This document shows, one piece after another, positions 20,716 through 24,749 of a stretch of DNA of 64,000 nt. The translations under genes and the position numbers were made by a program. The notes under the pieces are model-generated. The model was given only the letters and a program-made list of their open reading frames with translations. It was not told the DNA's origin and made no database searches. Position 1 is the first letter of the stretch, and every line of letters begins with the position of its first letter. The stretch is from Escherichia coli. Its GTDB lineage: Bacteria > Pseudomonadota > Gammaproteobacteria > Enterobacterales > Enterobacteriaceae. Location: assembly GCF_003334255.1 (NCBI RefSeq), contig NZ_QOWU01000004.1. One strand, 5' to 3'.

Positions 20716-21735
<1,020 letters not shown>

Positions 21736-22962
21736 TTATCCTTTTACGCACACCACCTGACGCAGGGTATAGATAACTTCCACCAGATCGCTTTGTGCCG
21801 CCATCACCGCATCAATATCTTTATACGCCATCGGGATTTCGTCGATCACTTCGGCATCTTTACGGCATTCCACATGCGCGGTGGCACGAATTTGATCTTC
21901 CACGCTGAACAGTTTTTTCGCTTTAGTTCGGCTCATTACCCGCCCGGCACCGTGGCTGCACGAACAGAACGACTCTTCATTTCCCAGCCCACGGACGATA
22001 AAGCTTTTTGCTCCCATCGAACCGGGAATAATTCCATATTGACCAGCACGCGCAGACACCGCGCCTTTACGCGTCACGTAGATCTCTTCACCAAAGTGCT
22101 GTTCTTTTTGCACATAGTTGTGGTGACAGTTGATCTCTTCCATCGCCAGCGTTTGTGGCTGTCTGACCGTTTTCTGCGTAATGCTCTGCAATGCCGTTAC
22201 CACGTTTTCCATCATCGCATCGCGGTTAAGGCTGGCAAAAAGCTGCGCCCAGGCCACGGCTTTCAGGTAATCATCAAAGTATTCCGTACCTTCCATAAAG
22301 TACGCCAGATCACGCGACGGCAACGTCTCAAGCGTTTCCTGCATCTCTTTTTGTGCCAGATCGATAAAGTAAGTCCCGATGGCGTTACCAATTCCGCGTG
22401 AACCGGAGTGCAGCATAATCCACACCTGGTCCGACTCATCAAGGCAGATTTCAATAAAGTGGTTACCGGTTCCCAGCGTTCCCAGGTGTTTATAGTTATT
22501 GGTATTCAGGAAACGGGGATATTTTTGCGTTAACCACTGATAACCGGCTTCAAGCTCAGCCCATTTAGCATCGACGTTAACAGGTGGATTTTCCCAGGCA
22601 CCTTTATCACGTTTACAACGGCCAGTGGTACGCCCGTGCGGCACGGCCGTTTCAATCGCCTGACGCAGCTCTGCCAGGTTTTCAGGCAGGTCTTCCGCCG
22701 TTAACGCGGTACGCAGCGCGTTCATTCCACAGCCAATATCCACGCCCACCGCCGCCGGAATAATCGCCCCTTTGGTCGGGATCACGCTACCAATGGTGGA
22801 ACCTTTACCCAGGTGTACATCAGGCATTACCGCAATATGTTTGAAAATAAACGGCATCTTCGCCGTATTAATAAGTTGCTGACGCGCATCGGCCTCTACC
22901 GGCACGCCTTTGGTCCACATTTTTACCGGGGCATTTTCAGTGGTCAGTAATTCGTAATTCAT
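21736..22962 (-). CDS. rtcB: RNA-splicing ligase RtcB (408 aa)
   Basis: ORF MNYELLTTENAPVKMWTKGVPVEADARQQL...; recognised. Confidence 0.95.
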   Translation of the reverse strand: MNYELLTTENAPVKMWTKGVPVEADARQQLINTAKMPFIFKHIAVMPDVHLGKGSTIGSVIPTKGAIIPAAVGVDIGCGMNALRTALTAEDLPENLAELRQAIETAVPHGRTTGRCKRDKGAWENPPVNVDAKWAELEAGYQWLTQKYPRFLNTNNYKHLGTLGTGNHFIEICLDESDQVWIMLHSGSRGIGNAIGTYFIDLAQKEMQETLETLPSRDLAYFMEGTEYFDDYLKAVAWAQLFASLNRDAMMENVVTALQSITQKTVRQPQTLAMEEINCHHNYVQKEQHFGEEIYVTRKGAVSARAGQYGIIPGSMGAKSFIVRGLGNEESFCSCSHGAGRVMSRTKAKKLFSVEDQIRATAHVECRKDAEVIDEIPMAYKDIDAVMAAQSDLVEVIYTLRQVVCVKG

Positions 22963-22999
22963 TTTGTTTTTCTCTTTTCGTTGTTTGCTGTCCTGATAA

Positions 23000-23017
23000 T
23001 TGCAACCGTCGTGCCAG
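23000..23017 (-). promoter_or_regulatory. Sigma-54 (-24/-12) promoter of rtcBA
   Basis: Minus strand reads CTGGCAC-GACGG-TTGCAA (TGGCAC-N5-TTGCA consensus) about 40 bp upstream of the rtcB ATG, facing the rtcR activator gene. Confidence 0.8.
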
Positions 23018-23150
23018 AAAATTAAATAAGCAGCTTAATTTTTTAATTCATTGTTTTAAAAAAGATTATATCTTTACGTCCGTAACCGGAGATTTCCCGC
23101 AAAGCCAATTTACCGATAATGAAATATCGTCTTTTATAAGGATATCTAAG

Positions 23151-24749
23151 ATGCGTAAAACAGTGGCTTTTGGCTTTGTCGGTACCGTACTGGATTATGC
23201 CGGGCGCGGCAGTCAGCGCTGGTCAAAATGGCGTCCGACACTCTGTTTATGCCAGCAAGAATCGTTGGTCATCGATCGACTGGAATTGTTGCACGACGCC
23301 CGCTCGCGCTCGCTATTTGAAACGCTTAAACGCGATATCGCCAGCGTTTCGCCAGAAACAGAAGTGGTGAGCGTTGAGATTGAACTGCATAACCCGTGGG
23401 ATTTCGAAGAGGTCTACGCCTGCCTGCATGATTTCGCCCGTGGTTACGAGTTTCAGCCAGAAAAAGAAGACTATTTAATTCACATCACCACCGGTACCCA
23501 CGTCGCGCAGATTTGCTGGTTTCTGCTGGCAGAAGCGCGTTACCTGCCCGCCCGGCTGATACAATCTTCACCTCCGCGCAAAAAAGAACAGCCGCGCGGC
23601 CCAGGTGAAGTAACGATTATCGATCTCGATTTAAGCCGTTATAACGCCATCGCCAGCCGCTTTGCCGAGGAACGCCAGCAAACGCTTGATTTTCTTAAGT
23701 CCGGCATTGCCACGCGTAACCCCCACTTCAACCGCATGATTGAGCAGATCGAAAAAGTGGCGATCAAATCCCGCGCGCCGATTCTGCTTAACGGTCCAAC
23801 CGGCGCGGGCAAGTCATTTCTGGCGCGACGCATCTTCGAGTTAAAACAGGCGCGGCATCAGTTTAGCGGCGCGTTTGTGGAAGTGAACTGCGCCACCCTG
23901 CGCGGCGATACCGCCATGTCGACGCTGTTTGGTCATGTAAAAGGCGCGTTTACCGGGGCGCGGGAATCTCGTGAAGGTTTATTACGCAGCGCCAACGGCG
24001 GAATGTTGTTTCTTGATGAGATTGGCGAACTGGGCGCAGACGAACAGGCAATGCTGCTGAAAGCCATTGAAGAGAAAACCTTTTACCCGTTTGGCAGCGA
24101 TCGCCAGGTGAGCAGTGATTTTCAGCTTATCGCCGGAACGGTGCGCGATTTGCGCCAGCTGGTTGCCGAAGGCAAATTTCGCGAAGATCTGTACGCGCGG
24201 ATCAATCTCTGGACCTTCACCCTGCCGGGTCTACGCCAGCGCCAGGAAGATATTGAACCGAACCTGGATTATGAAGTGGAGCGCCACGCCTCACTCACTG
24301 GCGACAGCGTGCGTTTTAACACCGAAGCGCGGCGCGCCTGGTTGGCTTTTGCGACCTCTCCCCAGGCAACATGGCGCGGTAACTTTCGCGAACTTTCTGC
24401 CAGCGTCACGCGGATGGCCACCTTTGCCACTAGCGGACGCATCACTCTGGACGTGGTTGAAGATGAGATAAACCGTCTGCGCTATAACTGGCAGGAGAGC
24501 CGCCCCTCCGCGCTTACGGCGTTGCTGGGCGCAGAGGCAGAAAACATCGATCTCTTCGACCGTATGCAACTGGAACACGTTATCGCTATCTGCCGCCAGG
24601 CAAAGTCGCTTTCCGCAGCCGGACGCCAGCTTTTTGACGTTTCGCGCCAGGGCAAAGCCAGCGTCAATGACGCGGATCGGCTACGCAAATACCTGGCGCG
24701 TTTTGGTCTGACGTGGGAAGCCGTGCAGGATCAGCACAGCTCCAGTTGA
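23151..24749 (+). CDS. rtcR: Sigma-54-dependent activator RtcR (532 aa), N-terminal CARF-like sensor and AAA+ domain
   Basis: [23 protein letters not shown]...; Walker A GPTGAGKS and GAFTGA motif present. Confidence 0.95.

Follow-up and report, generated by a model that had tools for sequence, protein, structure and literature searches.

The rtcB-rtcR intergenic region of Escherichia coli: a sigma-54 promoter, its CARF-domain activator and a candidate upstream enhancer

The spacer that separates rtcB from rtcR in the stretch of DNA analysed here, a 64-kb window of an Escherichia coli chromosome, is almost certainly the canonical control region of the rtcBA RNA repair operon, in which transcription starts from a sigma-54 promoter upon activation by RtcR. 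This is how the initial annotation had read the region, as a sigma-54 promoter of rtcBA facing an activator with a CARF domain, and each element of that observation was borne out, including the divergent arrangement of the two genes around a spacer of 188 bp. The dependence of rtcBA on sigma-54 and RtcR was reportedly described by Genschik et al. in 1998, as cited by later papers. Two of these papers, both citing that work, state that rtcBA requires sigma-54 and RtcR in E. coli (PMC9650030, PMC5175333). With the promoter and RtcR described since 1998 and the CARF domain since 2014, the feature is an ordinary one and the finding as stated is not a discovery. The cross-species anatomy of the spacer is an incremental refinement of this known system, and only the architecture of enhancer and IHF site, defined at the sequence level and across phyla, is possibly new, depending on what Genschik et al. 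(1998) contains.

The genes in the window follow the order malT-rtcA-rtcB<>rtcR-glpR, then glpG, glpE, and glpD (Table 1). When 5,426 complete E. coli genomes were searched with a 701-bp query spanning the spacer, a region annotated as rtcB and rtcR on either side, 4,858 gave a match, often with 100% identity, while the remaining 568 genomes (~10%) gave no match to the rtcB-rtcR region. The spacer is unusually polymorphic within the species, with 1,392 genomes only 90-95% identical to the window, and one strain retains just its rtcB side. In several human isolates (e.g., NZ_CP189474.1, 391199-392675) an IS1B element divides the match in two, and the annotation gives rtcR as a pair of fragments; rtcR is disrupted by IS1 in these strains. 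Within the operon, the first ATG of rtcA (21735) directly adjoins the rtcB stop codon (21736-21738), which suggests tight translational coupling, although RefSeq starts rtcA one codon later, giving a protein of 338 aa against 339 aa for the ORF. An Rfam scan of the whole window detected no RNA gene in the rtc locus, its sole match being RyhB (83 bits).

Table 1. Features of the rtc locus, in coordinates of the window
Feature	Coordinates	Strand	Basis or remarks
rtcA, RNA 3'-terminal phosphate cyclase, second gene of the operon	20716..21735	-	ORF; NCBIfam equivalog NF003247, 780 bits (cut-off 333); RefSeq rtcA
rtcB, RNA ligase, first gene from the sigma-54 promoter	21736..22962	-	ORF; RtcB-family NCBIfam matches; 99% identity to annotated rtcB
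rtcB/rtcR intergenic spacer, 188 bp	22963..23150		from ORF boundaries
Predicted rtcB 5' UTR, 28 nt	22963..22990	-	geometry from the -12 element; predicted +1 = C22990
Sigma-54 core (-24/-12), CTGGCAC-GACGG-TTGCAA	23000..23017	-	consensus match; conservation; published ChIP-seq site
Putative IHF-type site AAACAATGAATTA, 1 mismatch to WATCAANNNNTTR	23044..23056	-	centred near -60 in a stretch of 86% A+T; starts 40 nt upstream of TGGCAC
Distal dyad of the candidate enhancer, perfect palindrome CGATA-N6-TATCG = CGATAATGAAATATCG	23114..23129		centred near -131; conservation
Proximal dyad of the candidate enhancer, TTATAAGGATATCTAA, 3 mismatches to TTATC-N6-GATAA	23134..23149		degenerate in Escherichia; overlaps the rtcR ribosome-binding region; centre ~-151
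rtcR, sigma-54 enhancer-binding protein	23151..24749	+	ORF; NCBIfam RtcR equivalog; Pfam domains; motifs
RtcR, CARF domain, residues 2-185	23154-23705	+	Pfam RtcR PF06956, E = 1.4e-85
RtcR, AAA+ domain, residues 187-354	23709-24212	+	Pfam Sigma54_activat PF00158, E = 9e-51
RtcR, predicted helical HTH-like C-terminal domain, roughly residues 433-532	24447-24746	+	model and HTH neighbours

The sigma-54 promoter of rtcBA

The promoter is a -24/-12 element, CTGGCAC-N5-TTGCAA, found at 23017-23000 on the minus strand of the spacer as the initial annotation had it, with CTGGCAC at 23017..23011, GACGG at 23010..23006, and TTGCAA at 23005..23000. From the end of TTGCAA to the rtcB ATG (22962..22960) there are 37 nt, in agreement with the earlier estimate of about 40 bp. 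The GG and GC doublets are exactly 10 bp apart in TGGCACGACGGTTGCA (23016..23001, minus strand), which has zero mismatches to TGGCAC-N5-TTGCW, and a consensus scan of the window returned one exact match to this pattern, the rtcB promoter itself. On its own this count is only mildly significant, as shuffled sequence held a mean of 0.14 exact matches, with at least one in 14 of 100 shuffles. A chance origin of the match is excluded instead by its position in the spacer on the correct strand, a target that amounts to ~0.15% of the searched strand-bases, and by its conservation in orthologous loci. Matches with one mismatch were also present in the window, at about chance frequency (8 against 3.8 expected); two similar ones, TGGCACGTTCGGTGCA (61123-61138, minus strand) and TGGCACGAGCGGTGCA (63232-63247, minus strand), lie ~2.1 kb apart on the same strand.

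Conservation was examined in 80 RtcR loci taken from a one-genome-per-species collection that covers Gamma-, Beta-, and Alphaproteobacteria, Verrucomicrobia, Planctomycetes, Acidobacteria, and one deltaproteobacterial MAG, searching the 400 bp upstream of rtcR with up to one mismatch. On the strand divergent from rtcR, the -24/-12 element was found in 60 of 78 loci from several phyla; on the rtcR strand it was found in one of the 78, and flanking DNA, amounting to 1.2 Mb of strand-bases, gave a background of 17 matches. Between the element and the rtcR ATG the distance varies little: it is 135-157 nt in most loci and 135 nt in the window. Wherever tblastn detects rtcB in these loci, the gene lies upstream of rtcR on the opposite strand. 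At closer range, the promoter core is unchanged in seven of eight aligned Escherichia sequences, the exception being GTEN_97, where TGGTAC replaces TGGCAC in the -24 element, a change that could weaken induction.

The exact promoter sequence is already contained in published ChIP-seq tables: the sigma-54 data from E. coli MG1655 list the identical 17-mer CTGGCACGACGGTTGCA for rtcB (b3421) (PMC4591121). Its Salmonella ortholog, TGGCACGCTGGTTGCAAT, is ChIP-positive as well, and a reporter carrying it is rpoN-dependent (PMC3844500). The possibility that the match is an inert sigma-54 site or a chance consensus, with rtcBA driven by a sigma-70 promoter, draws on the shuffles mentioned above, on the E. 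coli ChIP-seq study, which describes many sigma-54 sites as intragenic or inactive (PMC4591121), and on the behaviour of the promoter itself. The native rtcBA promoter is very weak in vitro, although its consensus is perfect, and under some inducing conditions rtcBA expression is raised independently of RtcR (PMC9650030), so that other promoters may contribute at rtcBA. Such a reading is nevertheless highly improbable, since the element keeps its position and strand in orthologous loci across phyla, the Salmonella reporter depends on rpoN, and in E. coli a reporter depends on rtcR and is switched on by RtcR from which the N-terminal domain has been removed (PMC5175333). Loss of induction through point mutation of GG or GC, or through rpoN deletion, is already on record in this literature. 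Neither did a consensus scan of 22900-23250 find a sigma-70-like promoter. Two hexamers picked by eye as possible -10 elements of rtcR, GATAAT (23115-20) and GATTAT (23064-69), were discarded, as neither has a convincing -35 element or conservation. No evidence contradicts the assignment of the sigma-54 promoter and its activator.

The geometry of the element, with GC at -13/-12 and GG at -25/-24, predicts that rtcB transcription starts near C22990 and yields a leader of 28 nt. The predicted -1/+1 positions, A22991 and C22990, form an ApC dinucleotide, and published work on the native PrtcBA used ApC as its primer for -1/+1 (PMC9650030). The rtcB row of the ChIP-seq table also holds a value of 28, in a column whose meaning is not established (PMC4591121).

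The activator RtcR and its CARF domain

RtcR is identified over its full length by the NCBIfam equivalog NF038308 (852.4 bits against a cut-off of 650, residues 1-527), and in the window its gene is divergent from the operon containing rtcB, which is the arrangement of the RtcR family. Both motifs that the initial annotation had reported in the AAA+ domain are present, the Walker A sequence GPTGAGKS at residues 215-222 and the sigma-54 contact motif GAFTGA at residues 265-270, together with a Walker B sequence, LFLDEIG, at residues 286-292. The PDB sequence matches of the protein are the sigma-54 activators NtrC1, FleQ, ZraR, and PspF. The C-terminal domain models as an HTH domain and is predicted to bind DNA; the putative recognition segment within it, NDADRL.KYL, does not vary among 38 orthologs.

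A search of PDB sequences found no solved structure for residues 1-185 of RtcR. A model of residues 1-191, built from an alignment of 51 diverse homologues with 55-84% identity, reached a mean pLDDT of 85.4, with a core above 90 and an alternating beta/alpha topology. In structure it comes closest to CARF domains and not to generic Rossmann folds, which upholds the CARF-like assignment made at the outset and agrees with the one based on HHpred (PMC4012209). Sequence identity to solved CARF proteins is only 7-16%. Two near-invariant motifs stand out, G11 and D15 after strand 1 and T113-T114-G115-T116-H117 after strand 4, and the usual CARF K/R after strand 4 is absent behind TTGTH. The missing K/R in the RtcR family was noted by Makarova in 2014 and led to the designation 'divergent CARF' (PMC4012209). 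The modelled N-terminal domain of RtcR is, in these terms, a divergent CARF domain.

The RtcR-like CARF family has been described as having no linkage to CRISPR (PMC4012209), and the neighbours of the present locus are malT, glpR, glpG, glpE, and glpD, with no cas genes around. The CARF domain acts as a repressor: its deletion makes RtcR constitutive, and the domain supplied in trans represses (PMC9650030). An unusual combination was found in a metagenomic protein of 266 aa (P0099), for which a DEAD-box helicase domain (PF00270) and the RtcR CARF domain (PF06956) are listed together; this protein may be a fragment or a fusion.

The signal perceived by the CARF domain is a matter of debate, and the earlier remark that the physiological ligand is incompletely defined is a fair one, given that the studies in E. 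coli and Salmonella disagree on whether tRNA fragments are sufficient (PMC9650030 versus PMC7790460 and PMC10159003). In Salmonella, 5' tRNA halves with a 2',3'-cyclic phosphate bind RtcR and drive its oligomerisation, and nicked tRNAs do so better (PMC7790460, PMC10159003). In E. coli, the isolated CARF domain bound tRNA fragments whereas full-length RtcR did not, and these fragments gave no activation of transcription in vitro (PMC9650030). Cyclic oligoadenylates do not activate RtcR, while activation requires RtcA and RtcB, two proteins that bind the CARF domain (PMC9650030).

A candidate enhancer and an IHF-type site upstream of the promoter

The rtc promoter has been stated to possess an upstream activating sequence (UAS) and an IHF site (PMC9650030). 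No published sequence was found for either of them; the supplement of the same paper names a UAS-nifH hybrid plasmid and gives no sequence. Comparative analysis places the IHF site near -60, where it would be used at the putative site AAACAATGAATTA. Among 70 loci, 21 carry an exact WATCAANNNNTTR on the rtcB-sense strand no more than 100 nt upstream of the -24 element, and in 20 of the 70 it starts 41-43 nt upstream of TGGCAC, against 0.05 expected. Matches with one mismatch, like that of the window, are common (73 in the window); AAACAATGAATTA is in register with the exact sites of the orthologous loci, at 40 nt compared with 41-43.

Further upstream, next to rtcR, an alignment anchored on the rtcR ATG brings out two adjacent 16-bp dyads with the consensus sGATA-N6-kATCG followed by TTATC-N6-GATAA, which together make up four (G/T)AT(A/C) half-sites at a spacing of 10 bp. 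Allowing one mismatch, TTATC-N6-GATAA occurs in 56 of 79 loci, against 0.07 expected, and 35 of these copies stop 2-3 nt short of the ATG; GATA-N6-KATCG occurs in 37 of 79, against 0.9 expected, mostly 22-23 nt before the rtcR ATG. The proximal half-site cores, TAT and ATA, are invariant in 64 of 64 aligned sites, which had been selected by pattern. In the window, CGATA-N6-TATCG has a single exact occurrence, that of the distal dyad, and the half-sites GATA (23115-18), TATC (23125-28), and TATA (23135-38) are in register, the fourth being degenerate. A repeat search of the spacer had missed this 5+6+5 palindrome, returning only A+T-rich repeats of low information, and it was the cross-species anchoring that exposed it.

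The distal dyad is kept among E. coli alleles and in Superficieibacter. Substitutions in divergent E. coli alleles, E. albertii, and Superficieibacter cluster at ~23058-23108 and in the rtcB leader, sparing the promoter, the IHF core, and the dyad block. A separate change is seen in strain GPEC606, where TCTCG replaces TATCG in the distal enhancer half-site and could weaken induction. The 175-nt fragment of a published RtcR-responsive reporter (22963-23137) (PMC5175333) includes the distal dyad and the third half-site. The invariant NDADRL.KYL segment in the predicted DNA-binding domain of RtcR fits the invariant half-site cores. From this comparative evidence, the dyads are probably the enhancer at which RtcR binds. 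It is a more tentative claim that they are true RtcR sites and also had not been described at the sequence level before: no sequence-level definition of the RtcR enhancer was found in the literature covered, in which later papers name 'the UAS' without a sequence and which does not extend to Genschik et al. (1998). If the dyads are the enhancer, its architecture would span from Proteobacteria to Verrucomicrobia, Planctomycetes, and Acidobacteria, helically phased to the sigma-54 promoter.

This phasing is reflected in the distance from promoter to dyad, which falls into classes differing by about a helical turn, namely 97, 107-113, 118-121, 129-132 (35 of 51 loci), and 141-143 nt; in the window, the proximal dyad starts 118 nt from TGGCAC. 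Two loci in which the annotated ATG is 44-62 nt away, with start-codon calls that are uncertain, keep a promoter-to-dyad distance of 130-131 nt. The helical-turn steps and these two discordant loci favour a dyad position tied to the promoter and not to the ATG, in a way that is only suggestive, since the distances from dyad to ATG (sd 12.5) and from dyad to promoter (sd 13.4) show a similar spread.

That similarity of spread would also be compatible with the dyads being an RNA element, such as leader hairpins, or a translation signal of rtcR. They are 2-45 nt from the rtcR start codon and probably transcribed into its leader, and GGATAA or GAGATAA, the right-hand part of the proximal dyad, coincides in part with the Shine-Dalgarno position, an overlap that may add constraint. 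The stems, however, would be A/U-rich and only 5 bp long, it is the sequence of the half-sites that is conserved and not their pairing through compensatory change, and the distal pair of Pseudomonas is a direct repeat, TATC...TATC, unable to pair. The steps of ~10-11 bp and the two loci keeping 130-131 nt despite their distant ATG likewise speak against an RNA-level role. When the rtcR leader (23080-23165) was folded, it gave -10.2 kcal/mol, no better than the -11.1 averaged over shuffles (z = +0.35), and the hairpin reading was rejected. An RNA or translation signal in place of an enhancer is thus unlikely.

Binding of the dyads by another widespread regulator instead of RtcR, such as Fur with its GATAAT-type boxes, is hardly credible. 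GATAATGA at 23115-22 does match the first eight positions of the 19-bp Fur consensus, and the distal dyad of Superficieibacter reads CGATAAT-AA-ATTATCG, but the N6 spacing and the sequences of Pseudomonas and Burkholderia are not Fur-like, and the dyad element tracks rtcR and the sigma-54 promoter across phyla. As a Fur box, the region was discarded on its best score, 11 of 19 positions, which is equalled or beaten by 480 other 19-mers of the window, compared with 16 of 19 for the Fur box of ryhB. The latter served as positive control and is known biology: the RyhB sRNA is encoded at 45807-45871 (minus strand), with its upstream Fur box, GACAATAATAATCATTCTC, at 45903-45921, matching 16 of 19 consensus positions.

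Related systems and proposed mechanism

The closest known system is that of E. coli K-12 (Genschik et al. 1998; Engl 2016; Kotta-Loizou 2022), which is the same locus: the spacer of the window is 100% identical to that of many E. coli chromosomes, the promoter 17-mer and the gene order are identical, and there is no difference to report. The rsr-yrlBA-rtcBA operon of Salmonella Typhimurium (Hughes 2020; Kurasz 2018; Samuels 2013) shares the activator family, the divergent arrangement, the sigma-54 promoter, and a CARF-mediated response to tRNA damage. The two promoters, TGGCACGCTGGTTGCAAT in Salmonella and TGGCACGACGGTTGCAAT in E. coli, are identical at 16 of 18 positions. In Salmonella, however, the promoter drives rsr (a Ro60 homologue) and two Y-RNA-like genes before reaching rtcBA, whereas rtcB is the first gene in E. 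coli, for which it is also disputed whether tRNA fragments are a sufficient ligand (PMC9650030). In most RtcR loci of the set, rtcB starts ~2 kb from rtcR and not ~190 bp, and the operon content behind the conserved promoter varies widely. Thus, in Pseudomonas nitroreducens (locus L025), the first gene after the sigma-54 promoter (2149-3603, minus strand) is neither rtcB nor rsr, but encodes a 484-aa protein with weak similarity to HflK/HflC (SPFH/band-7).

RtcR differs more strongly from the CARF proteins of type III CRISPR systems (Csm6, Csx1, Can2, Card1, Cad1, Csa3), to which its identity is just 7-16%. It has no K/R after strand 4, no linkage to cas genes, and no activation by cyclic oligoadenylates, and its output is that of an AAA+ sigma-54 activator and not of a nuclease as in the type III CRISPR CARF effectors.

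Another instructive case is PspF of E. coli, likewise an enhancer-binding protein encoded divergently from its target, pspA, with a UAS, an IHF site, and a -24/-12 promoter. PspF lacks a sensor domain at its N-terminus, its control being exerted in trans by PspA, whereas RtcR carries its CARF sensor in cis. PspF autoregulates, its UAS overlapping its own promoter. By analogy, the dyads abutting the rtcR ATG suggest a PspF-like autoregulation of rtcR: overlapping the rtcR leader and ribosome-binding site, the enhancer would double as an autoregulatory operator, and its occupancy may limit rtcR expression. A comparison between PspF and RtcR has also been drawn for the feedback of operon products on the activator (PMC9650030).

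In the mechanism that best accounts for these data, the sigma-54 holoenzyme binds the -24/-12 element as a closed complex, unable to initiate by itself. RtcR, probably as dimers held through the C-terminal HTH domain, would occupy the two dyads upstream, and IHF would bend the A+T-rich segment in between, at or close to the putative site, so that enhancer-bound RtcR meets the polymerase. The CARF domain holds the AAA+ ATPase inactive until a signal of RNA damage arrives, for which the published candidates are tRNA halves or nicked tRNAs with a 2',3'-cyclic phosphate; RtcA and RtcB are further partners of the domain. RtcR would then oligomerise, touch sigma-54 through its GAFTGA loop, hydrolyse ATP, and open the promoter, and transcription would run from near C22990 through rtcB and then rtcA. 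Oligomerisation and the remodelling of the polymerase through GAFTGA and ATP hydrolysis are established for the enhancer-binding protein family.

The interest of the system is that no other CRISPR-type CARF sensor driving transcription outside CRISPR has been studied as well as RtcR, whose physiological ligand is still debated. The cross-species anatomy of the spacer, with its IHF site, phased half-sites, and helical-turn steps, offers concrete bases for mutation in the study of RtcR DNA binding, looping, and possible autoregulation. If the proposed role of the dyads is true, the enhancer would also be the operator by which RtcR limits its own synthesis.
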